Below, in pieces: positions 16,091 to 35,987 of a stretch of 64,000 bases of DNA. Within the stretch, counting starts at the first letter, position 1; the number at the start of each line of letters is the position of its first letter. The stretch lies in NCBI GenBank assembly GCA_031412095.1, contig JANOCI010000015.1, forward strand, positions 22,636 through 86,635. The letters are read 5' to 3'. The stretch is from Bosea sp. (in: a-proteobacteria) (lineage in GTDB: Bacteria > Pseudomonadota > Alphaproteobacteria > Rhizobiales > Beijerinckiaceae). The position numbers were made by a program, and so were the translations under genes. The notes beneath the pieces were generated by a model. That model was not told the origin of the DNA, did no database searches, and was given only the letters and a program-made list of their open reading frames with translations.

Positions 16091-16999
16091 ATGGGAAACC
16101 TGTCTTGGGACGATTTCCGGCTGATCAAGGCCATCGCCGACTCCAGCGGGCTGACGGGCGCCGCCAACATCCTGTCGGTCAACCATTCGACCGTGTTCCG
16201 CAGGCTGGGCCAGATCGAGGAGGCGGTGGGCCTGCCCTTGTTCGAGCGGCGCAAGACGGGATATGTCGCGACGCCTGCGGGCGAGGAGATGGCCGGCCTG
16301 GCAGGGCGCATGGACGACGACGTCAGCGCCTTCGCGCGCAGGATCGCGGGGCGCGAGATCGCGCCTTCAGGCGAGGTACGCATCACCACCACCGACACAT
16401 TGTTCCTGCATCTACTGATCCCGATCTTCCACTCCTTCCGCAAGGCGCATCCCAGCATCAGGCTCGACATCGTCATCGCCAATCAGGCGCTCAACCTGTC
16501 CAAGCGCGATGCCGACATCGCCATCCGCGCCAGCGACTCGCCGCCGGATACGCTCGTGGGCCGCAGGCTGGCGACGCTGGCCTGGGCCGTGTACGGGCGA
16601 AAGGACGACGCGCTGACCCAGCCCGAAGCGTATGATTCGGCCTCGCTGTTCGACCGCGACTGGGTCTGCCTGGGCGACCAGCTCGGCCATGTGAAGGCGG
16701 CGCGCTATGTCAGGGACCGCGTCTCCCCGGAGCGCATCGTGCTGAAGACATCGGCCGTGCTCGGCATCGCCGAGGCGATCGAAGGCGGCCTCGGCATCGG
16801 CCCCTTGCCGTGCTTCATCGGCGACCAGAAGCCAGGCCTGAAGCGCTTGATGGCCCCGAACCCGGATTTCGGCACGGCATTATGGCTGCTGACTCATCCC
16901 GACATCCGCCAGAGCCCCCGCATCCGCACCACCCTCGACATGCTGGCCGCCGAGATCAGCCGGCACCGCAAGCTGATCGAGGGCGAAGTGCCGCAGTGA
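16091..16999 (+). CDS. LysR-family transcriptional regulator
   Basis: N-terminal wHTH (DDFRLIKAIADSSGLTGAANILSVNHSTVFRRLGQIEEAVGLPLFER) plus a LysR substrate-binding domain. Divergent from doxX. Confidence 0.9.
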   Translation: MGNLSWDDFRLIKAIADSSGLTGAANILSVNHSTVFRRLGQIEEAVGLPLFERRKTGYVATPAGEEMAGLAGRMDDDVSAFARRIAGREIAPSGEVRITTTDTLFLHLLIPIFHSFRKAHPSIRLDIVIANQALNLSKRDADIAIRASDSPPDTLVGRRLATLAWAVYGRKDDALTQPEAYDSASLFDRDWVCLGDQLGHVKAARYVRDRVSPERIVLKTSAVLGIAEAIEGGLGIGPLPCFIGDQKPGLKRLMAPNPDFGTALWLLTHPDIRQSPRIRTTLDMLAAEISRHRKLIEGEVPQ

Positions 17000-21800: not shown

Positions 21801-24485
21801 ATGAGCGGCAAGAAGTGGGTCTACACTTTCGGCGATGGCAAGGCCGAAGGCCAGTCGAGCATGAAGAATCTGCTGGGCGGCAAGGGCGCGAACCTCGCCG
21901 AGATGTGCAATCTGGGACTGCCCGTGCCGCCGGGCTTCACCGTGCCGACCGACGTCTGCGTCCACTATTACGACAATGGGCAGAGCTATCCGGCCGAGCT
22001 GAAGGAGCAGGTCGAGGCCGCGCTGGCCGAGATCGGCCGCATCGCCGGCAGGACATTCGGGGATCCGGCCAACCCGCTGCTCGTTTCGGTCCGCTCGGGC
22101 GCGCGCGCATCGATGCCCGGCATGATGGACACGGTGCTGAACCTTGGCCTGAACGACCTGACGGTGGCCGCCGTGGCGCGGGCCGCCGGCGACGAGCGCT
22201 TCGCCTATGACAGCTACCGCCGTTTCATCACCATGTATTCGGATGTCGTGCTGGGCTGCGACCACCATCATTTCGAGGAGACGCTCGACGCCTACAAGGA
22301 GCGCAAGGGCGTCCAGCTCGACACCGACCTTTCGGCCGACGACTGGAAGACCCTGGTCGGCCGCTACAAGGAGATCGTGAAGAAGCAGCTCGGCCGCGAG
22401 TTTCCCCAGGACCCTCACGAGCAGCTCTGGGGCGCGATCGGCGCCGTCTTCGGCTCATGGATGAACGCCCGCGCCATCAAGTATCGCGAACTGAACAGCA
22501 TTCCGGCAGCCTGGGGCACAGCGGTCAACGTCCAGTCGATGGTGTTCGGCAACATGGGCGACACGTCGGCCACCGGCGTCGCCTTCACGCGCAATCCCTC
22601 GACCGGCGAAAAGGAGCTTTACGGCGAGTTCCTGGTCAACGCCCAGGGCGAGGACGTCGTGGCCGGCATCCGGACTCCGCAGGACATCACCGAGACCGCC
22701 CGCAAGGCTGCCGGCTCCGACAAGCCTTCGATGGAGGTCGCGATGCCCGAGGCCTACGCCGAGCTTGTCCGCATCTACGGCATCCTCGAGAAGCATTACC
22801 GCGACATGCAGGACATGGAGTTCACGGTCGAGGCCGGCAAACTCTGGATGCTGCAGACGCGCAGCGGCAAACGCACGGCGAAGGCTGCGCTGCGCATCGC
22901 CGTCGAGCTCGCCAACGAGGGGTTGATCACGCAGGACGAGGCGATCATGCGCGTCGAGCCGGGCTCGCTCGACCAGCTGCTGCACCCGACGATCGATCCG
23001 AAGGCGGAGCGCCGCGTCATCGCGACAGGGTTGCCCGCCTCGCCCGGAGCCGCCACCGGCGAAGTCGTGTTCACCTCGAATGAAGCCGAGACGCTTAAGA
23101 AGGCCGGCAAGAAGGTGATCCTCGTTCGCGTCGAGACGTCGCCCGAGGACATCCACGGAATGCACGCCGCCGAAGGCATCCTCACCACCCGCGGCGGCAT
23201 GACCAGCCACGCGGCCGTCGTGGCGCGCGGCATGGGCAAGCCCTGCGTCTCCGGGGCTGGCCAGATCCGCGTCGACTATGCCAAAAAGAACTTCACCGTC
23301 GGCGGCCAGACCCTGAAAGCCGGCGACTTCATCACGATCGACGGCGGCACCGGGCAGGTGATGCTCGGCGAGATCCGAATGCAGCAGCCCGAGCTTGCGG
23401 GCGAGTTCGCCACGTTGATGGTCTGGGCGGACAAGGTGCGCCGCATGAAGGTCAGGGCCAACGCGGAGACGCCGCTCGATGCGCGCACGGCCCGCGAGTT
23501 CGGCGCGGAAGGCATCGGCCTTTGCCGCACCGAGCATATGTTCTTCGAGGGCGACCGCATCATCGCGGTGCGCGAGATGATCCTGGCCGATGACGAGGCC
23601 GGCAGGCGCAAGGCGCTGGCCAAGCTGCTGCCGATGCAGCGCAACGATTTCGTCGAGCTGTTCAAGATCATGCAGGGCCTGCCCGTCACGATCAGGCTGC
23701 TGGATCCGCCGCTGCACGAGTTCCTGCCGCACACCGAGGCGGAGATGGGCGAAGTCGCGACGTCGCTGGGCGTGCCCGTGGAGAAGTTGAAGCGCCGCGC
23801 CGCGGACCTGCATGAGTTCAACCCGATGCTCGGCTTCAGGGGCGTGCGCCTCGCGATCGCCTATCCCGAGATCGCGGAGATGCAGGCCCGCGCCATCTTC
23901 GAGGCCGCCGTGATCGCGGCGCGGGAGACAGGCCACCCGGTCGTGCCCGAAGTGATGGTGCCGCTGGTGATGACCAGACCTGAGCTCGACCTCGTGCGCG
24001 GGCGCATCGACGCGATGGAGAAGGCCGTGGAGACCGAGACAGGGGCCAAGCTGACATACCAGGTCGGCACGATGATCGAACTGCCTCGCGCGGCCCTCCG
24101 CGCCCGCGAGATCGCCGGAGCGGCCGAGTTCTTCTCGTTCGGCACCAACGACCTGACCCAGACCACGCTCGGCATCAGCCGCGACGATGCGGCCTCCTTC
24201 CTCGGGCCCTACACCCAGAAGGGCATCCTGCCCGCCGACCCGTTCGTGACCATCGACCGGGACGGCGTCGGCGAACTCGTGAAGCTCGCGGTCGAACGCG
24301 GACGCGAGACGAGGCCCGACATCAAGCTCGGCATCTGCGGCGAGCATGGCGGCGATCCTGCCTCGATCATGTTCTGCGAAGAGGCTGGCCTCGACTACGT
24401 GTCCTGCTCGCCCTACCGCGTACCGATCGCGCGCCTTGCTGCAGCGCAGGCCGCGCTCGGCAATGTGACGGCGAAGGAAGGCTGA
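21801..24485 (+). CDS. ppdK: pyruvate, phosphate dikinase
   Basis: 894 aa. N-terminal ATP-grasp (GGKGANLAEM), phospho-His domain (TTRGGMTSHAAVVARGMG) and PEP-utilising TIM barrel (CGEHGGDP). GAGGA RBS before the ATG. Confidence 0.97.
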   Translation: MSGKKWVYTFGDGKAEGQSSMKNLLGGKGANLAEMCNLGLPVPPGFTVPTDVCVHYYDNGQSYPAELKEQVEAALAEIGRIAGRTFGDPANPLLVSVRSGARASMPGMMDTVLNLGLNDLTVAAVARAAGDERFAYDSYRRFITMYSDVVLGCDHHHFEETLDAYKERKGVQLDTDLSADDWKTLVGRYKEIVKKQLGREFPQDPHEQLWGAIGAVFGSWMNARAIKYRELNSIPAAWGTAVNVQSMVFGNMGDTSATGVAFTRNPSTGEKELYGEFLVNAQGEDVVAGIRTPQDITETARKAAGSDKPSMEVAMPEAYAELVRIYGILEKHYRDMQDMEFTVEAGKLWMLQTRSGKRTAKAALRIAVELANEGLITQDEAIMRVEPGSLDQLLHPTIDPKAERRVIATGLPASPGAATGEVVFTSNEAETLKKAGKKVILVRVETSPEDIHGMHAAEGILTTRGGMTSHAAVVARGMGKPCVSGAGQIRVDYAKKNFTVGGQTLKAGDFITIDGGTGQVMLGEIRMQQPELAGEFATLMVWADKVRRMKVRANAETPLDARTAREFGAEGIGLCRTEHMFFEGDRIIAVREMILADDEAGRRKALAKLLPMQRNDFVELFKIMQGLPVTIRLLDPPLHEFLPHTEAEMGEVATSLGVPVEKLKRRAADLHEFNPMLGFRGVRLAIAYPEIAEMQARAIFEAAVIAARETGHPVVPEVMVPLVMTRPELDLVRGRIDAMEKAVETETGAKLTYQVGTMIELPRAALRAREIAGAAEFFSFGTNDLTQTTLGISRDDAASFLGPYTQKGILPADPFVTIDRDGVGELVKLAVERGRETRPDIKLGICGEHGGDPASIMFCEEAGLDYVSCSPYRVPIARLAAAQAALGNVTAKEG

Positions 24486-24490
24486 GGCGG

Positions 24491-24760
24491 ATGCCGGTCC
24501 GCCTGCAGCGCCTCGATTACCTGTTCTTCGCCCTGATGCTCGTGACTGGCGTTGGCATCGCTGCCTACGTCACGCGCAACCCCGCGATGAACGATGCCGG
24601 AATACCGCCGATCGTCTGGCCGATCGCGGTGTCGTTCGCTTTCGATCTGGCGACGGTGGCGATGAAGGGCGGCGGCATGCCGCCCCTCGCGATGCCGATC
24701 CGCGCGGCCGGCGTCATCGGCGCGATGGTGCTGGTGGCGCTGCTGCAGGGGCGGATGTGA
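24491..24760 (+). CDS. hypothetical small membrane protein (about 3 TM)
   Basis: 89-aa ORF starting 6 nt after the ppdK stop with AGGAAGG/GAGG upstream. Three hydrophobic segments; no recognisable family. Confidence 0.5.
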   Translation: MPVRLQRLDYLFFALMLVTGVGIAAYVTRNPAMNDAGIPPIVWPIAVSFAFDLATVAMKGGGMPPLAMPIRAAGVIGAMVLVALLQGRM

Positions 24761-24850
24761 TCCATCGCGCAAGGTTTTGCGCAACGACTTTCCTTCTCCC
24801 GCAAACGGAAACGGGTCAGGCCGCTCTGAGCTCAAGCCCTATGTTCATCC

Positions 24851-26530
24851 CTATCGCCTGGCCAGCGCCTCCGCCCTGATGCCCGACAGGGTCTTCGCCG
24901 GCGTGATGACCTCGGGATCGATCAGGCAGTGCAGGATCGACGGCTTGCCGGACGCCAGCGCACGCTCGAAGGCAGGCGCGAACTCCTCTGTCGTTTCGAC
25001 CCTCTCCCCATGGCCGCCGAAGGCCCGCGCATAGGCAGCGAAATCGGGATTTTTCAGTTCCGTCGCCGAGATGCGGCCCGGATAGTGCATCTCCTGGTGC
25101 ATGCGGATGGTGCCGTACATGCGGTTGTCGATCACCACCACGATGATCGGCAGATCGTACTGCACGGCTGTGGCGAACTCCTGCCCGTTCATCAGGAAGC
25201 AGCCGTCGCCGGCGAACGCCACCACCGTCCGGTCCGGGAACATGCGCTTTAGGCCGACCGCGGCGGGCACGCCATAGCCCATGGAGCCGGAGGTCGGTGC
25301 GGCCTGGGTGCCGAACTGGCGGAAACGGTGGAAGCGGTGCACCCATGTGGCGTAGTTGCCGGCGCCGTTGCACAGGATGGCGTCGGAGGGAAGCCTATCG
25401 CGTAGCCAGACGACGGCCTCGCCGGGGTGAAACGCCCCCTGCACTGGCGCTGGAGCGTTCGACCAGCCATGGAAAGCGGCGTGCGCCTCATCCGCTGCGC
25501 CCTGCCATGCGATCGTCTGGGATGGATGGACCGTCTGCAGCGCGGCGCAGAACGCCGTCGGCGAAGCGTTGATGGCGAGCGCGGGATGATAGACCCGGCC
25601 AAGCTCGCCAGCATCGGGATGGACATGCACAAGGTTGCGTCCCGGCTCGGGAATGCCGAACAACGTGTAGCTCTGGCTCGGCATCTCCGACAGCCGCCCG
25701 CCAACGAGCAGGACAAGGTCAGCCTCCTTGATGCGCGACAGCAGCTTGGGATTAGGGCCGATGCCGAGATCGCCGGCGAAGCAGGGATGATCGCTGGAGA
25801 ACAGCATCTGGCGCCGGAACGTGACCGCGACCGGCAGTTCGAACTGCTCGGCAAAGCGGGCGAAACGGTCGACCGCCTGCTGGTCCCAGCGCGAGCCGCC
25901 CAGAAGCGCGATGGGCGCCTTGGCCGCCCACAGCATCTTCTGCAGCTCGATCATCTGGGTGAGCGAGGGGTGGGTCTCGATCGGGGAATGAGCCCTTGCG
26001 TCCATGACGCTTGCGGCTTCAGTCAGCACATCCTCGGGCAAGGCGATCACTACAGGTCCGGGGCGGCCCGACGTCGCCACGTGGAATGCGCGGCTGATGA
26101 TCTCCGGAATCCTCGCCGGGTCGTCGATCTCCGTCGCCCATTTGGCCATGGGCCCGAACACGGCGCGGTAGTCGAGCTCCTGGAAGGCCTCGCGCTCGCG
26201 CATGCCGCGTTCGATCTGCCCGACGAACAGGATCATCGGGGTCGAGTCCTGCTTTGCGATGTGGATGCCGGGGGATGCGTTGGTCGCACCCGGCCCGCGC
26301 GTCACCATGCAGATGCCGGGCCTGCCCGTGATCTTGCCGGCGGCCTCGGCCATCATCGCAGCTCCGCCCTCCTGACGGCAGACCGTGACGCGGATCGAGG
26401 CGTCATGCAGCGCATCGAGCACGGCAAGGTAGCTTTCACCCGGAACGCAGAACACGTCGGACACGCCCTGCAGCACCAGTTGGTCGACAAGGATCCGCCC
26501 GCCCGTGCGCGCTTCCACAGTCCGGTTCAT
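24851..26530 (-). CDS. thiamine-diphosphate-dependent enzyme (acetolactate-synthase-like family)
   Basis: 559 aa from ATG 26530 (MNRTVEARTGG...). N-terminal PYR domain (FCVPGESYLAVLDAL, TRGPGATN) and C-terminal ThDP motif (GDGCFLMNGQEFATA...NN). ATGA overlap with the upstream CoA-transferase stop. Confidence 0.85.
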   Translation of the reverse strand: MNRTVEARTGGRILVDQLVLQGVSDVFCVPGESYLAVLDALHDASIRVTVCRQEGGAAMMAEAAGKITGRPGICMVTRGPGATNASPGIHIAKQDSTPMILFVGQIERGMREREAFQELDYRAVFGPMAKWATEIDDPARIPEIISRAFHVATSGRPGPVVIALPEDVLTEAASVMDARAHSPIETHPSLTQMIELQKMLWAAKAPIALLGGSRWDQQAVDRFARFAEQFELPVAVTFRRQMLFSSDHPCFAGDLGIGPNPKLLSRIKEADLVLLVGGRLSEMPSQSYTLFGIPEPGRNLVHVHPDAGELGRVYHPALAINASPTAFCAALQTVHPSQTIAWQGAADEAHAAFHGWSNAPAPVQGAFHPGEAVVWLRDRLPSDAILCNGAGNYATWVHRFHRFRQFGTQAAPTSGSMGYGVPAAVGLKRMFPDRTVVAFAGDGCFLMNGQEFATAVQYDLPIIVVVIDNRMYGTIRMHQEMHYPGRISATELKNPDFAAYARAFGGHGERVETTEEFAPAFERALASGKPSILHCLIDPEVITPAKTLSGIRAEALARR

Positions 26531-27714
26531 GGACGGCCTCCCCAGTTCGGGTCCTGCAGGATGTCTGCGCCGTGCTCGTTCAGGGCCGGGCTCGGACGGG
26601 CCGACACCATGCGCACGCCGTCCATCACGATGGGCGACGCCACCGTCGGGACCGTCCCGGCGCGCGACGTCGTCGACGCCAGATCGCGCAGGACGCCGCG
26701 GGCCTTCACCTGCGGGTCGGCGAAGACCTCGTCCATGGCGTTGATCGGGCCTGCAGGCACCCCTGCCCGCTCCAGCTTCGCCAGCAGGTCCGCTTTCGCG
26801 AACCGTGCCGTGAGCCCGCAAAGGCGGGGCACAAGCAGGGCCCGGTTCCGGATGCGGTCCTGGTTCGCTGCATAGTCGGCGTGCACGCCAAGCCCGGGCT
26901 CCCCAAGCGCGTCGCACAGCTTGCGGTATTGCCCGTCATTGCCGCTGGCGATGATGATGTGGCCGTCGCTGACGGGGAACACCTCATAGGGCACGATGTT
27001 GGGATGCGCGTTGCCGAGACGACCGGGCGGCTTGCCCGAGACGAGGTAGTTCATGGCCTGGTTGCCCATCACCGCGACCTGGGAATCCATCAGCGCCAGA
27101 TCGATCGCAGCGCCGATCCCGGTCTGGTCGCGCCTGCGCAGCGCCGCCAGGATGCCGACCGTGGCGTACATGCCGGTGAAGATGTCGGCGGTGGCGTAGC
27201 CGGCCTTCGTGGGCTGGCCTCCGGCGTCGCCGGTCACAGACATCGCGCCCGCCATGCCCTGGATGAGGAAGTCATACCCGGCACGGTCGGCGTACGGCCC
27301 GTCCTGACCGAACCCGGTGATCGAGCAGCAGACCAGCCTGGGAAACGCCTTTCTCAACGTCGCGGCGTCAAGCCCGTATTTGACCAGCGCTCCGACCTTG
27401 AAGTTCTCGACGACGACGTCGGCGTGCCCGGCCAGCCTCATGACCAGAGCGCGACCCTCCGCCGTGCGGAAATCGGCCATGACCGACCGCTTGCCGCGGT
27501 TGCAGGAGTGAAAATAGGCGGCCGAGAGATGCTGCCCGTCCAGTCCTTCCACGAAAGGCGGGCCCCAGGCGCGCGTGTCGTCGCCTTCAGGCGCCTCGAC
27601 CTTGACGACGTCCGCGCCGAGGTCGGCCAGCAGCTGTCCGATCCAAGGCCCGGCGAGGATGCGGGCAAGCTCTAGAACGCGGATGCCGGCGAGAGGGGCG
27701 TCTGCAGTCGTCAT
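26527..27714 (-). CDS. family III (CaiB/BaiF) CoA-transferase
   Basis: 395 aa from ATG 27714. GIRVLELARILAGPWIGQLLADLGADVVKVE...GDDTR...NRGKRS... is the class III CoA-transferase N-terminus. Confidence 0.9.
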   Translation of the reverse strand: MTTADAPLAGIRVLELARILAGPWIGQLLADLGADVVKVEAPEGDDTRAWGPPFVEGLDGQHLSAAYFHSCNRGKRSVMADFRTAEGRALVMRLAGHADVVVENFKVGALVKYGLDAATLRKAFPRLVCCSITGFGQDGPYADRAGYDFLIQGMAGAMSVTGDAGGQPTKAGYATADIFTGMYATVGILAALRRRDQTGIGAAIDLALMDSQVAVMGNQAMNYLVSGKPPGRLGNAHPNIVPYEVFPVSDGHIIIASGNDGQYRKLCDALGEPGLGVHADYAANQDRIRNRALLVPRLCGLTARFAKADLLAKLERAGVPAGPINAMDEVFADPQVKARGVLRDLASTTSRAGTVPTVASPIVMDGVRMVSARPSPALNEHGADILQDPNWGGRP

Positions 27715-28529
27715 CGTTCGTCTCCGTCTTCGTCGGCGGCATCGACGCCGAGCGCCAGGCCGATGCCCATCAAGACGACAATCTGCCCGATGTAAATCTC
27801 CAGCGAGCGCCGGCCGCACAGGCGAAGCAGCACAGCCGGCGTGGCCGGAAGAGGGCGGGCGACGTCGCGGCGATCGAACCTCAGCAGGAGGCCGCTGACG
27901 AGGATGACCCCGCCCGCCATGATCCAGGTGTCTGCGACCTCGAATTCGTAGTCGTAGAGCTCCATCCCGATATAGGCCAGCGTGGCGAAAGCCCCGAGCG
28001 CCCGGCGGACGAGCCAGGCCGGATCGCGCTGGCGGTCGCCGCCCGCATCGAGCGCGCGGCGGTGGGCGAGGCCAACCAGCGCCAGCAGCCAGCCCTCGGA
28101 GCCATATTCGACGACCTGTCCCGCCAGGGGCATCAACGCCGCCAGCGCCGCGGCGAACAGAGCGATGCGCCACCATGCCCGCATGACGTTCGCCTCGATG
28201 AATGACAGCGACAGGCGGATGACGGCGAAATTGAACATGACGTTGAGGGAGATTTCGTCGAACCCGCCATGCCGCCAGACATCCAACGCGGTCAGCCCGG
28301 CGCCGGCCGCCCACCAGAACCATGGCACATGCCGGGTGCGGGCGAAGCCGATGAGGAAAAAGAAGATCGGCAAGGCGGCACGCCCGAGCGCGGTCATCCA
28401 GAGCTGGTCCGGCCAGATGTAGAACCACAGGTGATCCAGCAGGATCAGCAGGAGCGCCGCGCTCTTCCACAGATCGACGGTGGTCACTGCCAGGGCCGAC
28501 GAGGAACGGGGCAGGTCGGCGGCGCTCAC
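27711..28529 (-). CDS. TraX-like polytopic membrane protein (putative membrane acyltransferase family)
   Basis: 272 aa, about 8 TM, GTG start 28529 (GTGA overlap). N-terminal pattern WKSAALLLILLDH...LGRAALPIFFFLIGF resembles the TraX family (LK..A...M..DH...GR.AFPIF) as I recall it. Confidence 0.55.
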   Translation of the reverse strand: MSAADLPRSSSALAVTTVDLWKSAALLLILLDHLWFYIWPDQLWMTALGRAALPIFFFLIGFARTRHVPWFWWAAGAGLTALDVWRHGGFDEISLNVMFNFAVIRLSLSFIEANVMRAWWRIALFAAALAALMPLAGQVVEYGSEGWLLALVGLAHRRALDAGGDRQRDPAWLVRRALGAFATLAYIGMELYDYEFEVADTWIMAGGVILVSGLLLRFDRRDVARPLPATPAVLLRLCGRRSLEIYIGQIVVLMGIGLALGVDAADEDGDER

Positions 28530-29338
28530 GTCAGGACATGATCCAGGCCGCGCTTGACGCCGATGAAGCCGGACACCTTGCGCGCGGCGAGCAGCGTGCC
28601 GGCGACATAGGGCGCGGCGGACGATCCTGCATCGTGGCGGATGAGCAGGCGCTCGTCAGCCGCGCCGAAGATCGCCTCGCATGACAGCACGATGGATGGC
28701 ATCCTGACGGAATGCACCTGAACAGGATTGGGCTCGCCGAGCGCCGCGCCGCGCGTCTCGCGCGCGCCGCCAAGCTCGGCGACGGGTTTGGACGTCCCGG
28801 CCATGCGCACCTTGGCCAGCATCTCTCCCAATTCGCGGGCCGTGCCGGAGGGCGTGTCGGGCTTGGCGGCGGAGGCATAGTCGATGATCTCGACATCGGG
28901 CACATACCGGGCCGCCTCAAGGGCGAAGCGGCGCAGCAATGTCGCCGTGATCGAGAAGTTGCCTGCCGCCAGGACGCCCTTGCCGGCGCTCATCGCGGCG
29001 ATGTCGATCTTGTCGTAGTCAGCGGCGGTCAGGCCCGACGTGCCGATCACGACATGCCTGCCGCGGGCGAGCGCCGTCAGCGCGTGGTGCTTGACCGCAT
29101 TAGGCTTGGTGTAGTCGATGAGCACGTCCGAGGGCGCAGCCAGCGCCTCGGCGACCGTGGCGTGGACGATGACGCCCAGCGCACCGATGCCGGCCACGTC
29201 GCCTGCATCCTTGCCGGCCGCCTTTCGGGAGATCGCGGCGGCCAGCGTGAGGTCAGGAGCGGCATGGATGGCTGCGACAAGGGCCTTGCCGACCCAGCCC
29301 GAGACGCCTGCGAGAACGATGCGGATGGGAGCGGTCAT
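28526..29338 (-). CDS. DapB-family (dihydrodipicolinate-reductase-like) oxidoreductase, divergent paralog
   Basis: N-terminal Rossmann motif (IRIVLAGVSGWVGKAL), VIGTSG, and C-terminal DVEIIDYASAAKPDTPSGTA aligning without gaps to E. coli [20 protein letters not shown], with the His residues replaced. Confidence 0.75.
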   Translation of the reverse strand: MTAPIRIVLAGVSGWVGKALVAAIHAAPDLTLAAAISRKAAGKDAGDVAGIGALGVIVHATVAEALAAPSDVLIDYTKPNAVKHHALTALARGRHVVIGTSGLTAADYDKIDIAAMSAGKGVLAAGNFSITATLLRRFALEAARYVPDVEIIDYASAAKPDTPSGTARELGEMLAKVRMAGTSKPVAELGGARETRGAALGEPNPVQVHSVRMPSIVLSCEAIFGAADERLLIRHDAGSSAAPYVAGTLLAARKVSGFIGVKRGLDHVLT

Positions 29339-29742
29339 GGATCGGGCCTCTCGCGGATCATGAGCAGCAGCGGAAAAAGGGCAAAGGCGATCTGCGGCGT
29401 CAATTCAAGCATGCCCCGAGCCGTTACGTAAGCGCCAAGATGCATGGCGAGCGTGCGGCCGAAGCCGAACACGGCGACGGCGGCCTCGCCCGCCAGCAGC
29501 AGCGCGAAGGCCGCGGCGCCCATGGCCAGCCTGCGCGTTGCGCGCGCGGCGACCGCATGCCGCCGGATCAGCCGCTGCGCCAGCAGCCATGCGGCGAGCA
29601 GGATCAGCGGGCCCTCGACCAGAACGACCGCATCGCGCCCGAAGAGCGGGGCCAGAACGAGCTCCCGCAGCGTGCCGAGCGCGAAGCCGAGCGCGAAGAT
29701 GACGGCGCCATAGGCCAGGCCGGCGCCGAGCGCAGCGCTCAA
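29335..29742 (-). CDS. hypothetical 4-TM membrane protein
   Basis: 135 aa. The only plausible start is TTG 29742 (TTGA overlap with the GNAT stop). ATGA overlap with the DapB-like start. No family recognised. Confidence 0.5.
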   Translation of the reverse strand: MSAALGAGLAYGAVIFALGFALGTLRELVLAPLFGRDAVVLVEGPLILLAAWLLAQRLIRRHAVAARATRRLAMGAAAFALLLAGEAAVAVFGFGRTLAMHLGAYVTARGMLELTPQIAFALFPLLLMIRERPDP

Positions 29743-30254
29743 GGCAGATCCAGCCTCATGTAGCGGATCGCCTTGCCGCCCGGCAGATGGCGAAGCGCGA
29801 TCTCCGAGAAACCGAGGGCGGAGTGCAGCGCGTCCGATGCGGGATTGGCCGGGATGACATTGATCTCGCAGCCGATCACGGGACGGTCCTCAGCGCGGGC
29901 GCGGGCGAACAGTTCGCCATAAAGCGCCCGCGCAAGGCCCTGCCCACGGGCCTGATGCGCGACGACGACGCGGTCGACATAGTAGAAGCGGTCATGACGC
30001 TCCCGGAACCACGCAAGGTTGGCGTTGCGGTGGTCGGATGCGTCGTTGAAGGCGATCATGAATGCCTGCGGTTCGCCTCCAAACGCCATGGCGAACCCCG
30101 ATGCCTTCAGAAGTTCGCCATAGCTCACGGCGTCGAGAACCGAGGTCTCGACACTATTAACCGAATTCAGGGTCAGCACCGCCTCGACCTTGCACGCGGC
30201 GAGGCCGACGAGCGGCGGGCGCGCCTGATCCATGGCCACAGAGGCCTCAGGCAT
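29739..30254 (-). CDS. GNAT-family N-acetyltransferase
   Basis: 171 aa with an acetyl-CoA-binding motif-A-like segment VVVAHQARGQGLARALYGELF. TGATG 1-nt overlap with the gcdH stop. Confidence 0.7.
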   Translation of the reverse strand: MPEASVAMDQARPPLVGLAACKVEAVLTLNSVNSVETSVLDAVSYGELLKASGFAMAFGGEPQAFMIAFNDASDHRNANLAWFRERHDRFYYVDRVVVAHQARGQGLARALYGELFARARAEDRPVIGCEINVIPANPASDALHSALGFSEIALRHLPGGKAIRYMRLDLP

Positions 30255-31471
30255 CAGAAGAAAGCCTGAAGCCCCGTGATGGCGCGGCCAAGGATCAACG
30301 CGTGCACGTCATGGGTTCCCTCGTAGGTATTCACCGTCTCGAGGTTCGCGGCGTGGCGCATCACGTGATATTCGATCTGGATGCCGTTGCCGCCGTGCAT
30401 GTCGCGGGCCATGCGCGCGATGTCGAGCGCCTTTCCGCAATTGTTGCGCTTGACGATGGAGATCACTTCGGGGGCCAGCTTGCCCTCGTCGAACATGCGG
30501 CCGACGCGCAAGGACCCCTGCAGGCCCAGCGCGATCTCGGTCGCCATGTCCGCCAGCTTCTTCTGGAAGAGCTGCGTCTGGGCCAGCGGCTTGCCGAACT
30601 GGTGACGGTCCAGGCCATATTGCCGCGCCTGCGTCATGCAGGCTTCGGCTGCGCCCATCACGCCCCATGAAATGCCGTAGCGCGCGCGGTTGAGGCAGCC
30701 GAACGGCCCCTTCAGTCCCGAGACGTTCGGCAGGAGCTGGCTTTCCGCCACGAAGACGTCGTCCATGACGATCTCGCCGGTCGTCGAGGCGCGCAGCGAG
30801 AGCTTTCCGCCGATCTTGGGCGCGGACAGGCCCTTCATGCCCTTATCGAGGATGAAGCCCCTGATCTCGTCGCCATGCGCGGCGGACTTCGCCCAGACCA
30901 CGAAGACGTCCGCGAACGGCGAATTCGAGATCCACATCTTCGAGCCGTTGAGGACGTAGCCGCCATCGGCCTTGACGGCGCGCGTCTTCATGCCGCCCGG
31001 ATCGGACCCTGCGTCGGGCTCGGTCAGGCCGAAGCAGCCGATGAATTCGCCGCTGGCCAGCTTCGGCAGATACTTCTTGCGCTGCAGTTCGTCGCCGTAG
31101 GCGTAGATCGGGTACATCACGAGCGAGGACTGCACGCTCATCATCGAGCGATAGCCGGAATCGATCCGCTCGACCTCGCGCGCGACAAGGCCGTAGGCGA
31201 CATAGGACGCGCCGGAACCGCCATATTCCTCGGGAAAGGTCACGCCAAGCAGGCCCTGCTCGCCCATCAGGCGGAACAGTTCGGGCGCCGCGGTCTCGTT
31301 CATGTAGGCTTCGGCCACCCGCGGCATCAGCACGTCGGCGGAGAACGCGCGGGCAGCGTCGCGGATCATCCGCTCCTCTTCCGACAGCTGGTCCTCCAGC
31401 AGGAACGGGTCTTCCCAGTTGTAGATCGCCTTCGGGGCCTTGGCGGCCTTGGCTTGTGGCACGGCGCTCAT
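30254..31471 (-). CDS. gcdH: glutaryl-CoA dehydrogenase
   Basis: N-terminus [21 protein letters not shown], then [10 protein letters not shown], ...[14 protein letters not shown]..., typical of the GCDH subfamily. ATG 31471 preferred; the track start 31489 is TTG. Confidence 0.88.
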
Positions 31472-31507
31472 GATGATGGCCTTTCGCAATTCGTTTCGAA
31501 TGTATCT

Positions 31508-32485
31508 TTAGCGCTGCTTGCGCAGCGTTCCTAGCCGGGAGATGACGTCTTCAGCCTCCTGCACGGTGCGTTCGATGATCGCAGCCGCAGGCATCACCTC
31601 ATGGATCAACCCCGTGGCTTCGCCGACCCAGACGCCCACATCATCGGGATCGCCGGCGGCCACCTTTGCGGAATAGTCGGCGCGGTTCGCTTCCGCCACC
31701 GCGCGATGCGCGTCGGGGCGATGATCCCAGTCCCGCACGAAACGGTTCTCGAGCACGCGGGCCGTGAACTCCGCCGGCCAGTCATACCCACGCGCGATGT
31801 CGGTCGCGGTCTGCCTGACCGTCGCGTCGCCCGTGGCTCCCACCGCTGCTGCCTGATGGCGCGGATGGGTCAGGGCTTCCGCAGCGGCCCAGAACCGCGA
31901 CCCCATCAGCACGCCGTCTGCGCCGAGCGCCAGGGATGCCGCCAGCCCCCTGCCATCCGCGATGCCGCCTGCCGCCACTAGCAAGGTGTCCGGCGATCTG
32001 AGGCGCAGCAGGTCGCCGATTTCCGGCACCAGCGTCATCGTGGCGCGCCTGGCGCCATGCCCGCCCGCCTCCGCGCCCTGGGCCACGATGATGTCGGCGC
32101 CAGCCTCGATCGCATCGGCGGCATGCGCCAATGTCTGCACCTGGCAGACAAGAAGCGTGCCGGCGGCCTTGATTTCACCCGCGTGCGGGCGGGGGTCGCC
32201 GAAGGAGAGCATCAACGCTGCCGGCGCATGGGCCAACGCCTGGGTCAGCAAAGCCGGGTCCTGCGCCATCGACCAGGTGATGAAGCCGCAGCCGACGCGG
32301 GCATTGCCGGCAGCCGCGAATTCGCGCTTCAACCAGTCAGCATCGCCATAGCCGCCGCCGATCAACCCAAGGCCGCCGGCATGGGTGACCGCAGCCGCCA
32401 ACGCGCCGCCCCCCGCGAACGCCATCGGCGCGGACATGATCGGGTGGCGGATGCCCAGGCGGGCGGTCAGGCGGGTCGTCAGCAT
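31508..32485 (-). CDS. nitronate monooxygenase / NMO-family FMN oxidoreductase
   Basis: 325 aa. LGIRHPIMSAPMAFAGGGALAAAVTHAGGLGLIG and ...VAAGGIADGRG... are the NMO/2-nitropropane-dioxygenase TIM-barrel motifs. Confidence 0.85.
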   Translation of the reverse strand: MLTTRLTARLGIRHPIMSAPMAFAGGGALAAAVTHAGGLGLIGGGYGDADWLKREFAAAGNARVGCGFITWSMAQDPALLTQALAHAPAALMLSFGDPRPHAGEIKAAGTLLVCQVQTLAHAADAIEAGADIIVAQGAEAGGHGARRATMTLVPEIGDLLRLRSPDTLLVAAGGIADGRGLAASLALGADGVLMGSRFWAAAEALTHPRHQAAAVGATGDATVRQTATDIARGYDWPAEFTARVLENRFVRDWDHRPDAHRAVAEANRADYSAKVAAGDPDDVGVWVGEATGLIHEVMPAAAIIERTVQEAEDVISRLGTLRKQR

Positions 32486-32491
32486 GACGCC

Positions 32492-34018
32492 TCACCCCTC
32501 CACATCGAACACCACGCCCTGCGCCAGAGGTAATGCCGTGCCGTAGTTCACCGTGTTGGTGGCGCGCCGCATGTAGGCCTTCCAGGCGTCCGAGCCTGCC
32601 TCACGTCCGCCTCCGGTCTCCTTCTCGCCGCCGAACGCCCCGCCGATCTCCGCCCCTGACGGTCCGATGTTGACGTTCGCGATGCCGCAATCGGAGCCTG
32701 CGGACGACATGAACGTTTCGGCCTCGCGGATGTCGAGCGTGAAGATCGAGGAGGAAAGACCCGCGCCGACCGCATTCTGCATGGCTATGGCTTCGGCCAG
32801 CGTGCGGAAGCGCGTCACATAGAGAATGGGCGCGAATGTCTCGTGCAGCATCGGGCCGTTCTGCTGCGGCAGCTCCACCAGTGCGGGAGCGGCATAATAG
32901 GCGTCGTCGCCTGCGATCCCGGAGACGCGCTGGCCGCCATGTATGATTCCGGCGTTCGCGCGGGCGTCGCCGAGCGCACGCTCCATCGCGCCGAAGGCCT
33001 GCCTGTCGATGAGCGGTCCCACCAGCGTGCCAGCGTGCCGCGGGTCGCCGATCCTCACCGAGCCGTAGACCTTGGCGAGCCGCGGGACCAGCGTGCAGTA
33101 GATGCTATCGTGGACGAACAGCCGCCGAAGCGTGGTGCAGCGCTGCCCGGCGGTGCCCATCGCGGCGAAGGCAATGCCGCGCAGGGCCAGATCGAGATCG
33201 GCGGAAGGGGCGACGATGGCCGCGTTGTTGCCGCCCAGCTCGAGGATGGCGCGGGCGAACCGCTTTGCAAGGCGCGGAGCCACCTCGCGGCCCATGCGCG
33301 TCGAGCCCGTGGCCGAGACGACCGCCACGCGCGCATCGTCGACCATGACCTCGCCGATGCTGCGGTCTCCGATCAGCAAGGCGCACAGGCCGGGCGGCGC
33401 ATCCGGGCCGAACCGGGCGATCGCCCGCTCGACGATGGCTTGCGTCGCCAGCGCGGTGAGGGGCGTCTTCTCGGACGGCTTCCAGACCACCGAATCGCCG
33501 CAGACAAGAGCGAGCGCCGCATTCCACGACCAGACGGCCACCGGGAAGTTGAACGCCGAGATCACGCCGCAGACGCCGAGAGGATGCCATGTCTCCATCA
33601 TCCGGTGGGAAGGCCGTTCGGTCGCTATGGCGAGGCCATAGAGCTGCCGCGACAGGCCGACCGCGAAATCGCAGATGTCGATCATCTCCTGAACCTCGCC
33701 GAGGCCTTCCGAGACGATCTTGCCGGCCTCCAGCGTGACCAGAAGGCCAAGGTCCTCCTTGGCGGCGCGCAGCTCCTCACCGAGCAGGCGCACAAGCTCG
33801 CCCCGTCGCGGCGCGGGAACCAGCCGCCACGCGCTGAAAGCCGCGTGGGCATTGGCAATGGCCTCTCCGGCCTGCCCGGCCGACATCGCCCTGACCGTCG
33901 CGATCTCTTCGCCGGTGATGGGCGAGCGTGCAGCGAGCCCGGTGGCGGCAAAAGCGCCGTCAGGCACGCCAAGCCGCTTCAGGATGGCCATGGCCTCTTC
34001 ACGCACGTTCATGGCCAT
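32492..34018 (-). CDS. amaB: ALDH7-type aldehyde dehydrogenase (piperideine-6-carboxylate / alpha-aminoadipic semialdehyde dehydrogenase-like)
   Basis: EAGKIVSEGLGEVQEMIDICDFAVGLSRQLYG closely matches the antiquitin/ALDH7 block. Catalytic ELGGNNA and GTAGQRCT present. Starts possible at 34018, 34012 or 34033. Confidence 0.82.
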   Translation of the reverse strand: MAMNVREEAMAILKRLGVPDGAFAATGLAARSPITGEEIATVRAMSAGQAGEAIANAHAAFSAWRLVPAPRRGELVRLLGEELRAAKEDLGLLVTLEAGKIVSEGLGEVQEMIDICDFAVGLSRQLYGLAIATERPSHRMMETWHPLGVCGVISAFNFPVAVWSWNAALALVCGDSVVWKPSEKTPLTALATQAIVERAIARFGPDAPPGLCALLIGDRSIGEVMVDDARVAVVSATGSTRMGREVAPRLAKRFARAILELGGNNAAIVAPSADLDLALRGIAFAAMGTAGQRCTTLRRLFVHDSIYCTLVPRLAKVYGSVRIGDPRHAGTLVGPLIDRQAFGAMERALGDARANAGIIHGGQRVSGIAGDDAYYAAPALVELPQQNGPMLHETFAPILYVTRFRTLAEAIAMQNAVGAGLSSSIFTLDIREAETFMSSAGSDCGIANVNIGPSGAEIGGAFGGEKETGGGREAGSDAWKAYMRRATNTVNYGTALPLAQGVVFDVEG

Positions 34019-34176
34019 CGCCGCATTCCCCATCAGATCGGCTGCAAAATGCGCTGACCGGCCCGTTGTTGCAACTGCGAAGTTCAGGCGGGACAGCACC
34101 GGAAAGCCGGCGTCGCGGCACGTTGAAGCGGGCTATGCGCTTGCCAAAGCGCAGGCGGAGTGGCCATGTTCGCAGC

Positions 34177-35415
34177 ATGGACGATATCTCCCCATCGGCT
34201 GGCTTGCCCGCATCGGCTGACATCGTGATCGCGGGAGGCGCCGCCATCGGCTCGTCGATCGCCTACCACCTCATGGCCGACCCCGCCTTCAAGGGCCGGG
34301 TCGTCGTCGTCGAAAAGGATCCGACCTACAGGCTGTCCGCCTCGGCCCTGTCGGCGGCATCGATCCGCCAACAATTCTCGAGCGCGGTCAACATCCGCAT
34401 CTCGCTGCACGGCATCAGGTTCCTGCGTGAGATCGGCGAGCGGCTCGGCGTCGACGGCGAGCAGCCGGAGATCGGCCTCAAGGAAGGCGGCTATCTGTAT
34501 CTCGCGACCGAGGCCGGCGCCGGCACCCTGCGCGCGATGCAGGAAGCACAAAGGCTGGAAGGCGCCGATATCGGGCATCTCGGCAAGCCCGCGCTCGCGC
34601 AGCGCTTTCCGTGGCTGAACGTCGATGACGTCGCGTGCGGCAACCTGGGGCTGTCGGGAGAAGGCTGGTTCGACGGATGGAGCCTGCTCCAGGCCTTCCG
34701 GAAGAAGGCGCGGGCGCTCGGCGCTGCCTATGTCACCGGAGAAGTGGCGCATTACGAATTGGACGGCGCGCGCGTCGCGGCCGTGATACTTAAGGACGGA
34801 TCGCGCGTCGCGTGCGGCGCGGCGGTCAACGCATCGGGCTCGCAAGGCGCCGGACTCGCGGCGACGGCCGGCGTGATCCTTCCCGTCATGCCCAAGAAGC
34901 GCTTCGTGTTCACCTTCATGTGCAAGGGCGACGTGACGGACTGCCCGCTGCTGATCGACACGTCCGGCGTCTATTGCCGGCCGGAAGGGCGCCGGACGGC
35001 CGAGGGGCAGATGTTCATCTGCGGAGCGTCCCCTCCTTCCGGCGAAGATCCCGATTGGGACGAGGCGGATCCCCGCGTCGCGGACGTCGACTGGCCGTTC
35101 TTCGAGGAGCGCGTCTGGCCAGCCCTCGCCGCGCGCGTGCCGGCCTTCGAGGCCATCCGGCCGATGCAGGCTTGGGCCGGGCCCTATGACATGAACATGC
35201 TGGATGCCAACGCCATCGTCGGACCGTCCTTCGGCCTGCCGAACCTTTACCTCGCCAACGGCTTCTCCGGCCACGGGCTGCAGCAATCGCCTGCCGTGGG
35301 ACGCGGAATCGCGGAATTGATCGCGCACGGGCGCTACGTCACGCTCGATCTGTCCGATCTCGGCCATGAGCGCATCGTGAGGAACCGCCCCCTCGTCGAA
35401 GCCAACGTCATATGA
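34177..35415 (+). CDS. FAD-dependent oxidoreductase (DAO family; sarcosine/pipecolate-oxidase-like)
   Basis: 412 aa from ATG 34177. N-terminal dinucleotide fold DIVIAGGAAIGSSIAYHL...VVVEK and C-terminal ...ANGFSGHGLQQSPAVG... Divergent from the amaB-like operon. Confidence 0.8.
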   Translation: MDDISPSAGLPASADIVIAGGAAIGSSIAYHLMADPAFKGRVVVVEKDPTYRLSASALSAASIRQQFSSAVNIRISLHGIRFLREIGERLGVDGEQPEIGLKEGGYLYLATEAGAGTLRAMQEAQRLEGADIGHLGKPALAQRFPWLNVDDVACGNLGLSGEGWFDGWSLLQAFRKKARALGAAYVTGEVAHYELDGARVAAVILKDGSRVACGAAVNASGSQGAGLAATAGVILPVMPKKRFVFTFMCKGDVTDCPLLIDTSGVYCRPEGRRTAEGQMFICGASPPSGEDPDWDEADPRVADVDWPFFEERVWPALAARVPAFEAIRPMQAWAGPYDMNMLDANAIVGPSFGLPNLYLANGFSGHGLQQSPAVGRGIAELIAHGRYVTLDLSDLGHERIVRNRPLVEANVI

Positions 35416-35987
35416 AAGCCTGCCTGATGATCAGCTCCCATCACATCCAGACCATGGCGCGCTACAACCAGTGGCAGAACCGCAGCCTGTTGAGGCAGGC
35501 TGACGCCCTCGGCGACGTCGAGCGCCGGAAAGCGCGCGGAGCGTTCTTTTCGTCGATCCACGGCACGCTGAGCCACCTGCTCTGGGGCGACAAGATCTGG
35601 ATGCACCGCTTCGCCCAGAGCCCGAAGCCTGAGGGCGGGATCAAGGACTCGCCGCATCTCTTTCCGGACTGGGATGCGCTGGCGGCGGAGCGCGAGGCGT
35701 TCGACGCCGTCATCGCCGACTGGAGCGCGCATGTCAGCCCAGGCTGGCTGTCCGGTGACATGAGCTGGCATTCGGGCGCCCTCGGCCGGCAGGTCAGCAA
35801 GCCGATCTGGTTCCTCGTCACGCACATGTTCAACCACCAGACCCACCATCGCGGCCAGGTGCATTGCATGCTGACTGCGGCAGGCGCGAAGCCCGAGGAC
35901 ACCGACATGATCTTCATGGACCTGCACACCGACTTGGACCTGCACGCCGACGTGCGCGCGCAGGCTGACTTGGGCCGACCGGGCTAG
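35412..35987 (+). CDS. DinB-family protein
   Basis: MARYNQWQN...HGTLSHLLWGDKIW...HMFNHQTHHRGQV is the DinB four-helix His-triad pattern. ATGA overlap with the upstream stop; alternative ATG 35427. Confidence 0.8.
   Translation: MKACLMISSHHIQTMARYNQWQNRSLLRQADALGDVERRKARGAFFSSIHGTLSHLLWGDKIWMHRFAQSPKPEGGIKDSPHLFPDWDALAAEREAFDAVIADWSAHVSPGWLSGDMSWHSGALGRQVSKPIWFLVTHMFNHQTHHRGQVHCMLTAAGAKPEDTDMIFMDLHTDLDLHADVRAQADLGRPG

Follow-up and report, generated by a model that had tools for sequence, protein, structure and literature searches.

In Pseudomonas, the amaAB and gcdHG genes encode the pipecolate oxidase AmaA, the piperideine-6-carboxylate (P6C) dehydrogenase AmaB, the glutarate coenzyme A (CoA)-transferase GcdG and the glutaryl-CoA dehydrogenase GcdH. 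The arginine route of P. aeruginosa, DauA/AruI/KauB, runs from a DAO-family dehydrogenase, which yields the 2-oxo acid, through an acetolactate-synthase-like decarboxylase dependent on thiamine diphosphate (ThDP) to an aldehyde dehydrogenase. To our knowledge, two consumers of 2-oxoadipate have been described, the 2-oxoadipate dehydrogenase complex (with DHTKD1 as its E1a) and HglS. Alphaproteobacteria make the biotin precursor pimeloyl-acyl carrier protein from glutaryl-CoA derived from lysine breakdown. Work on A. tumefaciens showed that lysine, 2-oxoadipate and glutarate are each converted to glutaryl-CoA by way of the CaiB transferase; no enzyme was named for the step from 2-oxoadipate to glutarate (Hu and Cronan, 2020; PMC7645780). 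The Pseudomonas gene names are partly taken from the same study. Here we analyse a gene cluster related to these systems, which lies in a 64,000-nucleotide stretch of the alphaproteobacterium Bosea sp. (hereafter the window; GenBank assembly GCA_031412095.1, contig JANOCI010000015.1, positions 22,636 to 86,635).

We read the core of this cluster, i.e. a divergent gene pair for a DAO-family flavoenzyme and a DinB protein together with the genes for an ALDH7-type dehydrogenase, GcdH, a CoA-transferase and a ThDP enzyme, as encoding the lower aminoadipate branch of lysine/pipecolate catabolism, into which further genes were inserted stepwise. On the sequence comparisons reported below, we put the chance that this reading is correct at slightly better than even. 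The core features, in window coordinates, are:

32492-34018, minus strand: ALDH7-type P6C/2-aminoadipate-semialdehyde dehydrogenase, core gene 1 (Aldedh; NF050084)
30254-31471, minus strand: glutaryl-CoA dehydrogenase GcdH, core gene 2 (three ACAD domains)
26527-27714, minus strand: family III CoA-transferase of the glutarate type, core gene 3 (CoA_transf_3; NF052585)
24851-26530, minus strand: ThDP enzyme of family PRK08199, core gene 4, candidate 2-oxoadipate decarboxylase (TPP_enzyme N/M/C; NF006052)
34019-34179, no strand: divergent ALDH7/DAO intergenic region of 161 nucleotides, the position of lysR in relatives (sequence reading)
34180-35415, plus strand: DAO-family FAD (flavin adenine dinucleotide) oxidoreductase, divergent core gene, candidate for pipecolate or 2-aminoadipate oxidation (PF01266, 3e-48)
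35412-35987, plus strand: DinB-family protein whose gene overlaps the DAO stop codon (PF05163, 4.5e-22)

At the family level, the identities predicted for ALDH7, GcdH and the glutarate-type CoA-transferase are well founded. ALDH7 exceeded the curated equivalog cutoff of NF050084 (pip_6_carb_DH) with 793.4 bits against 730, and its PDB matches included 6DBB (3e-205), Pcd (6RTR, 1e-186) and human ALDH7A1 (1e-139). The sequence GQRCTT around the catalytic Cys was retained, with Arg directly before and Thr directly after it, and the ALDH7 segment GTAGQRCTTLRRL aligned with the Pcd sequence 6RTR. We take this Arg to be the residue that binds the alpha-carboxylate of aminoadipate semialdehyde, and the Arg-Cys-Thr stretch to be the counterpart of the substrate carboxylate site in ALDH7A1. 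GcdH matched 4W9U (4e-221), Burkholderia GCDH (3GNC, 6e-181) and human GCDH (1SIQ, 3e-164); its similarity to the named solved GCDH enzymes was full-length (residues 14-405), and decarboxylating activity on glutaryl-CoA is predicted. For the CoA-transferase, the best NCBIfam family was NF052585 (succinate-glutarate CoA-transferase) with 561 bits, the next family reaching 294, and PDB matches were a Brucella CaiB/BaiF protein (4ED9, 4e-134) and human SUGCT (9BR6, 4e-83). No other protein of its genome came close to it in the match to the glutarate-transferase model (560 bits; the runner-up reached 265). These family calls uphold the lysine-family route to glutaryl-CoA that an earlier note on this DNA, made from the letters and open reading frames only, had put forward; the other family calls of that note, including the divergent DAO-family FAD oxidase, held in Pfam and NCBIfam profile searches as well.

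In the route that we propose, ALDH7 would convert P6C or aminoadipate semialdehyde to 2-aminoadipate, as its family assignment predicts, and either the DAO flavoenzyme or an unlinked transaminase may deaminate 2-aminoadipate to 2-oxoadipate. Gene linkage and co-occurrence suggest that the ThDP enzyme would decarboxylate 2-oxoadipate to glutarate semialdehyde. This could be oxidized to glutarate by ALDH7 or by a GabD-type dehydrogenase encoded elsewhere; a GabD-type semialdehyde dehydrogenase (704 bits) is present on another contig of the same genome. By family assignment, the CoA-transferase would then form glutaryl-CoA, presumably with succinyl-CoA as donor, and GcdH would yield crotonyl-CoA and CO2. 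In an alternative entry, DAO would oxidize L-pipecolate to P6C.

The ThDP enzyme is a full-length member of PRK08199 (NF006052; 920 bits, cutoff 539; positions 2-558 of 559), an NCBIfam family that carries no functional label, and 105 of the 111 genus genomes have an ortholog. It fell far below every acetolactate synthase equivalog cutoff, the best score being 336 bits against 509. To see which genes accompany it, we surveyed 301 alphaproteobacterial species genomes, scoring ThDP enzymes above the PRK08199 cutoff and DAO orthologs at E ≤ 1e-60 with ≥ 39% identity:

PRK08199 ThDP family: ~120 of 301 genomes (~40%)
DAO orthologs: 68 of 301 genomes
ALDH7: 62 of 301 genomes
HglS: 9 of 301 genomes

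A ThDP enzyme accompanied DAO in 61 of 68 genomes (of the seven others, five have matches close to the cutoff) and ALDH7 in 43 of 62. ALDH7 itself occurred in only 22 of the 68 genomes with DAO. The distribution of DAO thus follows that of the ThDP enzyme much more closely than that of ALDH7, an association that the earlier note had not noticed. The genomic neighbourhoods pointed in the same direction: in five GTDB families the ThDP gene was linked to ALDH7, to a gene resembling lysine dehydrogenase (LysDH), to DAO or to the CoA-transferase gene, and in three families besides that of the window it adjoined ALDH7. Specifically, two families showed a LysDH-like gene of the saccharopine-dehydrogenase family (366-433 residues) followed by ThDP and ALDH7, one such operon continuing with an acyl-CoA ligase gene; the nearest solved relative of the LysDH-like protein was Pyrococcus PH1688 (3ABI), with aminoadipate-semialdehyde synthase and saccharopine reductase next in rank. 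A third family had lysR next to ThDP-ALDH7, a fourth ThDP-DAO-LysE in a genome lacking ALDH7, and a fifth ALDH7-DAO. In the window's own family, all of these linkages occur together. Neighbours of DAO and ThDP genes outside the linked cases had no common theme.

No match to HglS (PF07063) was found in the window's own assembly, which is 97% complete. Among the 62 ALDH7-positive genomes, HglS occurred in six, namely in 4 of the 19 without and in 2 of the 43 with the ThDP enzyme, a weak trend towards complementarity in numbers too small to be of use. Since HglS was not found here or in most ALDH7-positive genomes, another consumer of 2-oxoadipate is needed. This need, the linkage and co-occurrence of the ThDP gene, and the lack of a named enzyme in A. 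tumefaciens lead us to propose the PRK08199 enzyme as a candidate 2-oxoadipate decarboxylase, an inference from gene linkage, co-occurrence and pathway logic. The earlier note had suggested ThDP-dependent decarboxylation of 2-oxoadipate; this suggestion now has comparative support from the LysDH-like-ThDP-ALDH7 operons, the failure to find HglS in this genome and the co-occurrence, and keeps its inferential standing. Full-text literature searches found no paper using '2-oxoadipate decarboxylase' or synonyms for a bacterial catabolic enzyme; papers on 'glutarate semialdehyde' concerned other routes or engineering and not the 2-oxoadipate step, and searches for lysine dehydrogenase with thiamine, or for GapMind with aminoadipate, returned nothing relevant.

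Two further observations were made around ThDP genes. Some genomes have a second, distantly related ThDP paralog (27-29% identical) adjoining or close to the PRK08199 gene (L043:3226-4641 and L060:18529-19863), and at L002:11991-12640 a PIN toxin/Phd-YefM antitoxin pair splits the CoA-transferase/ThDP junction, which elsewhere is overlapping.

The evidence on the DAO flavoenzyme is split. Its nearest solved relatives, the L-proline dehydrogenase beta subunit (1Y56_B, 6e-20) and dimethylglycine dehydrogenase, act on imino acids, which, with no LysDH-like source of P6C found in the own genome, fits oxidation of pipecolate to P6C. Its distribution follows that of the ThDP enzyme rather than ALDH7, which fits oxidation of 2-aminoadipate to 2-oxoadipate. 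The enzyme would thus act on either pipecolate or 2-aminoadipate. The DinB gene, which the earlier note had not listed, adjoins DAO in three of the cluster forms described below (types 0, A and B) and is its conserved partner in the genus.

Relatives also carry a regulatory gene in the ALDH7/DAO spacer: lysR was found there in L002, L017, L021 and L088-L093, and the encoded LysR proteins of two relatives were 85% identical. No regulator gene lies inside the window's cluster, as had been noted before, and no ortholog of the cluster lysR was found in the own genome, where the best match was 33% identical. Because relatives carry this lysR and the own genome has no ortholog of it, we regard the absence of a regulator as a secondary loss, judged from gene content. 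A LysR gene at positions 16091-16999 of the window was considered as a relocated copy and rejected, as the best own-genome match, 33% identical, lies on another contig.

The nine minus-strand open reading frames run from 34018 down to 24851. ALDH7 and the following gene, for a nitronate monooxygenase (NMO)-like protein, are separated by 6 nucleotides, and NMO and gcdH by 36; all further junctions have overlapping stop and start codons, reading TGATG (gcdH/GNAT), TTGA (GNAT/four-helix protein), ATGA (four-helix protein/DapB), GTGA (DapB/TraX), ATGA (TraX/CoA-transferase) and ATGA (CoA-transferase/ThDP). Our reading of the window reproduced this nine-gene array and every one of its junctions as previously described. 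Third-position GC of the operon frames was 0.83-0.88 (genome GC 67%), which supports them as coding. No promoter-like or terminator-like site was found within 24300-34400. The five genes that join the four minus-strand core genes are:

31508-32485, minus strand: NMO/FabK-like FMN (flavin mononucleotide) oxidoreductase, lineage-specific insertion (PF03060, 2e-37)
29739-30254, minus strand: GNAT acetyltransferase, lineage-specific insertion (PF00583, 1.5e-7)
29335-29742, minus strand: four-helix membrane protein (4-TM) of 135 residues, lineage-specific insertion (no Pfam or NCBIfam match)
28526-29338, minus strand: DapB paralog without the His-His pair, lineage-specific insertion (DapB_N and DapB_C; TIGR00036)
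27711-28529, minus strand: TraX-like polytopic membrane protein, earlier insertion found in types A, B and C (PF05857, 5e-13)

Mapping of eleven window proteins onto relatives distinguished four cluster forms. In type 0, represented by all six sampled large-genome congeners (4.5-7.3 Mb), only lysR-DAO-dinB and, divergently, ALDH7-gcdH-CoA-transferase-ThDP are present. Type B (three loci) adds the TraX-like gene alone, between gcdH and the CoA-transferase gene, and keeps lysR. In type C (two more distant loci) the order is DAO, ALDH7, an unrelated gene and TraX-CoA-transferase-ThDP; a third locus is the same without TraX. Type A is the form of the window and was found in six further genomes or contigs; where the genome size is known, it is 3.6-3.9 Mb. 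This form has no lysR, carries NMO after ALDH7, and has 4-TM and the DapB paralog after gcdH, preceded in most cases by GNAT. As this order recurs in seven independent genomes or contigs, it is not due to chance. The nine overlapping genes are thus evidently, by comparison of gene orders, four core genes and five lineage-specific insertions, with the divergent DAO as a fifth core enzyme. The same comparison indicates that the TraX-like gene was inserted first, that NMO, GNAT, 4-TM and the DapB paralog arrived later in the small-genome sublineage, and that lysR was lost. As part of the reading that we favour, by a narrow preference over its denial, the core pathway would not need NMO, GNAT, 4-TM, the DapB paralog or the TraX-like protein.

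The synteny survey suggested by the earlier note therefore had a mixed outcome for it. Gene order proved conserved among relatives rather than scattered; the view of nine genes as a single pathway did not hold, the five extras being absent from six of six sampled large-genome congeners. Its tentative route through N-acyl or cyclic-imine intermediates is left without comparative support, since the extras are lineage-specific, stepwise insertions and the DapB, 4-TM and TraX relatives occur in unrelated contexts.

Several points weigh against our assignment of the core and its steps. The closest solved relatives of the ThDP enzyme, catabolic acetolactate synthases (1e-72, 248 bits), are carboligases and not decarboxylases, and the CoA-transferase scores below the NF052585 equivalog cutoff (561 against 750 bits). 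The substrates of the ThDP enzyme and of DAO are assigned from neighbours and co-occurrence only, and the co-occurrence counts are uncorrected for phylogeny or genome size. Some 77 of the sampled genomes have the ThDP family and no ALDH7, and outside the linked cases the neighbours of the ThDP gene are heterogeneous, so that the family may have another or a broader substrate. For DAO, the two lines of evidence disagree, its relatives suggesting pipecolate and its distribution aminoadipate; if DAO does not supply P6C, the genome, in which no LysDH-like gene was found, offers no other source of P6C among the genes found. Finally, the translational coupling of the inserted genes is kept across several species, which could mean that they participate.

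This last point also speaks for the likeliest of the alternatives, in which all nine genes form one pathway. GNAT, the TraX-like protein or both would attach an N-acyl group to lysine or to an intermediate; a piperideine carboxylate would be reduced by the DapB paralog and an intermediate oxidized by NMO, together feeding P6C or 2-oxoadipate to the core. The overlapping stop and start codons are maintained in several species of the sublineage, and the core lacks an obvious source of P6C unless DAO supplies it. Against this, the core stands without the five extras in all six sampled large congeners, and GNAT is missing from some full clusters: in two of type A (L019 and L024) the gap after gcdH is 57 nucleotides, too small for the gene. 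We consider the one-pathway explanation unlikely. The properties of the single inserted proteins, given in the following, bear on it from both sides.

The DapB paralog has both DapB domains and scored above the TIGR00036 cutoff (162.7 bits against 122), and it shares the Lys and the PSGT(A/G) motif with canonical DapB (4-hydroxy-tetrahydrodipicolinate reductase). It differs in the His-His pair, in place of which all paralogs inspected have Ala-Ser; its motif reads DYASAAKPDTPSGTA where the canonical DapB of the genus has EMHHRxKVDAPSGTA, and the eight other paralogs inspected also lack the pair. In DapB, the His pair helps to bind the dicarboxylate substrate, and its loss with retention of Lys and PSGT(A/G) would fit a ring substrate with one carboxylate, in favour of the one-pathway explanation. 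Speaking against that explanation, paralogs 70% identical to the operon protein stand alone in large congeners, in unrelated contexts near GNAT, LysE exporter, SDR, oxoprolinase and chemoreceptor genes. A housekeeping role for the operon gene was considered and rejected, because five of five checked full-cluster carriers have a separate canonical DapB, with which the paralog coexists. The own assembly (97% complete) has no DapB-family match besides the His-less paralog; as all five checked carriers have a canonical gene, an assembly gap is the most likely reason.

LysE-type exporter genes were seen at two kinds of site, adjoining a stand-alone DapB paralog and GNAT in a large congener (L013:9502-11773) and adjoining the ThDP-DAO pair in another family (L058:12032-12667). 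This adjacency hints at a link with the handling of basic amino acids.

The TraX-like protein shares its Pfam family with the pilin N-acetylase TraX of the F plasmid, scoring above the PF05857 gathering threshold (50 bits against 25). It lies far below the cutoffs of the F-type equivalogs (TIGR02755, 27.7 against 149 bits; NF010260, 33 against 419) and, unlike F-plasmid TraX, is encoded on the chromosome within a catabolic operon, with no transfer or pilin gene among the flanking genes scanned (10215-47987). Homologs are rare, with 56 clusters in a collection of 5.8 billion proteins; 17 of the 111 genomes in the genus and 6 of the 401 in the order carry one. Residues that do not vary within the family include K22, D32, H33, R50, R105, R157, R175, R240 and E244, with Asp32-His33 in the first helix. 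A structure model of high confidence (pLDDT, predicted local distance difference test, 90) gave long alignments in VIA-align only with the transmembrane acyltransferases HGSNAT (Z 10.2 over 225 residues, and 9.3) and GWT1 (8.1), values of Z below ~13 being indecisive for helical bundles; a Foldseek search of the PDB returned nothing at E ≤ 0.001, the value being 0.15. The predicted fold may be that of HGSNAT and GWT1, and the conserved Asp-His pair of the first helix is a further point of likeness; the TraX-like protein is plausibly, according to the model, a membrane acyltransferase.

An acyl-CoA-dependent transmembrane acyltransferase fold, as modelled, next to a CoA-transferase would favour the one-pathway explanation. 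In its most specific form, the TraX-like enzyme would use acyl-CoA from the adjacent CoA-transferase and, with GNAT, the DapB paralog and NMO, carry lysine to P6C or 2-oxoadipate via N-acyl or cyclic-imine intermediates; we regard this as a long shot. If true, it would amount to a previously unknown catabolic pathway built around a membrane acyl-CoA-dependent acyltransferase. Telling against the involvement of TraX in a single pathway, homologs ~41% identical occur beside MEKHLA, cation-efflux and GST genes. At L006:8793-11536, L007 and L008, the order is MEKHLA-domain, cation-efflux-like, TraX-like and GST gene, adjoining a hybrid histidine kinase.

The 4-TM protein has 95 homolog clusters and no name in a protein-atlas look-up. 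Its distant members occur in hemH-X-Band7-NfeD arrays, a link to ferrochelatase genes that again does not fit a single pathway. This array is conserved in Beijerinckiaceae-like contigs (L085:5880-9007 and L086:5883-9008) as ferrochelatase, 4-TM (overlapping the hemH stop), Band7 and NfeD. At the hemH-Band7 locus of the own genome, Band7 comes immediately after hemH and no 4-TM gene lies between them. The 4-TM family was not found in four large congeners, which makes acquisition of the gene as likely as relocation from the hemH locus, as far as gene content can tell. Two hemH-like matches in the own genome (C1:29-1045 and C3:2-937), with 68% and 67% identity to one and the same query, each lie at a contig end and represent either a gene duplication or one gene split by the assembly. 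NMO, for which the nearest PDB entries are FabK and nitronate monooxygenases, is absent from type 0 and type B clusters.

A second alternative gives the core enzymes other substrates. In an Ehrlich-type lysine route, DAO would oxidize lysine or pipecolate at C2 to 6-amino-2-oxohexanoate (piperideine-2-carboxylate), the ThDP enzyme would decarboxylate this to 5-aminopentanal and ALDH7 would oxidize it to 5-aminovalerate, from which unlinked GabT/GabD-type enzymes would provide glutarate for the CoA-transferase and GcdH. The co-occurrence of DAO and ThDP (61 of 68), their adjacency in a genome without ALDH7 and the resemblance of DAO to imino-acid dehydrogenases all suit this scheme; the dehydrogenase-ThDP-ALDH order in L056, L057 and L059 would represent three consecutive steps, and the 5-guanidino-2-oxopentanoate decarboxylase (AruI) family is among the NCBIfam matches of the ThDP enzyme (242 bits). 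The scheme is at odds with ALDH7, which exceeds the P6C dehydrogenase equivalog cutoff and retains the Arg before the catalytic Cys, and with the LysDH-like partner, whose nearest relatives all make or use aminoadipate semialdehyde. Moreover, the ThDP gene is coupled to a glutarate-type CoA-transferase, yet the 5-aminovalerate transaminase and semialdehyde dehydrogenase would be encoded outside the cluster. We think the Ehrlich-type route distinctly unlikely.

The cluster could also serve another substrate, e.g. some other amino or imino acid, or a secondary amine resembling an opine, and owe its resemblance to the lysine branch to enzymes of broad specificity. The ThDP enzyme and DAO usually have heterogeneous neighbours and are reported as far more widespread than ALDH7 (~120, 68 and 62 of 301 genomes), and the route proposed here gives the DinB partner no role. 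Nevertheless, ALDH7, GcdH and the glutarate-type transferase are specific markers of aminoadipate and glutarate metabolism that stay together across the genus, and we give this possibility little weight.

Oxalate degradation pairs a family III CoA-transferase with a ThDP enzyme (Frc/Oxc). A similar logic here, with the CoA-transferase acting first on 2-oxoadipate or a 2-hydroxy acid and the ThDP enzyme then decarboxylating or cleaving the acyl-CoA directly to a glutaryl-CoA precursor, would agree with that design and with the adjacent, codon-overlapping genes throughout the genus, but is highly improbable given that the ThDP enzyme scores only ~147 bits to oxalyl-CoA decarboxylase/2-hydroxyacyl-CoA lyase against 248 to acetolactate synthase-like entries, mostly lacks an adjacent CoA-transferase beyond the window's bacterial family, and is partnered by a transferase closest to glutarate-type enzymes.

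On one side the cluster is flanked by a gene for pyruvate phosphate dikinase, on the other by genes for a PfkB kinase, an FAH-family protein and a sugar ABC transporter. An open reading frame for 89 residues (24491-24760), located between the dikinase gene and the operon end, has coding-like third-position GC and no Pfam match; locus L001 has a gene of the same size at the equivalent position.

Returning to the aminoadipate-branch reading, the cluster offers two cloneable candidates for the steps from aminoadipate to glutarate, the PRK08199 ThDP enzyme and the co-distributed DAO flavoenzyme. If the ThDP enzyme does act on 2-oxoadipate, it would be a third biochemical solution for 2-oxoadipate removal besides the dehydrogenase complex and HglS, and the widespread annotations 'acetolactate synthase' and 'thiamine pyrophosphate-binding protein' would need correction. 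The locus would also exemplify how, in a reduced genome, genes that do not belong to one pathway can become joined by tight translational coupling.

As in Pseudomonas amaAB, a DAO-family flavoenzyme gene lies beside that of an ALDH7-type dehydrogenase in this cluster; as in gcdHG, a family III CoA-transferase is paired with GcdH under a LysR-type regulator, the latter here in relatives. The cluster differs in fusing both modules and in adding the PRK08199 ThDP enzyme and the DinB protein; the window's version has in addition lost the regulator and gained five extra genes. In Pseudomonas, 2-oxoadipate is removed by HglS, which the window's genome appears to lack. The DauA/AruI/KauB route has the same three-enzyme design as DAO, ThDP enzyme and ALDH7, whereas its substrate differs and the ThDP enzyme is much closer to PRK08199 (920 bits) than to the AruI family (242 bits). 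The candidate ThDP enzyme would occupy the same pathway position as the DHTKD1 E1a complex and HglS; it is a single-subunit, acetolactate-synthase-like protein of an architecture unrelated to E1a, and where the complex and HglS give glutaryl-CoA and 2-hydroxyglutarate directly, the route proposed here would need glutarate and a CoA-transferase afterwards. The closest parallel in the same class is the CaiB (Atu2127) route of A. tumefaciens, which supplies BioZ-dependent biotin synthesis: it likewise uses an alphaproteobacterial succinyl-CoA:glutarate CoA-transferase, and glutarate is an obligate intermediate between 2-oxoadipate and glutaryl-CoA, as proposed here (PMC7645780). That work named no enzyme for the conversion of 2-oxoadipate to glutarate (PMC7645780); the window's cluster offers a candidate. 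What is new in this locus, we propose from its sequence, is thus a set of candidate enzymes for the unassigned step from 2-oxoadipate to glutarate, within an otherwise known kind of catabolic cluster.

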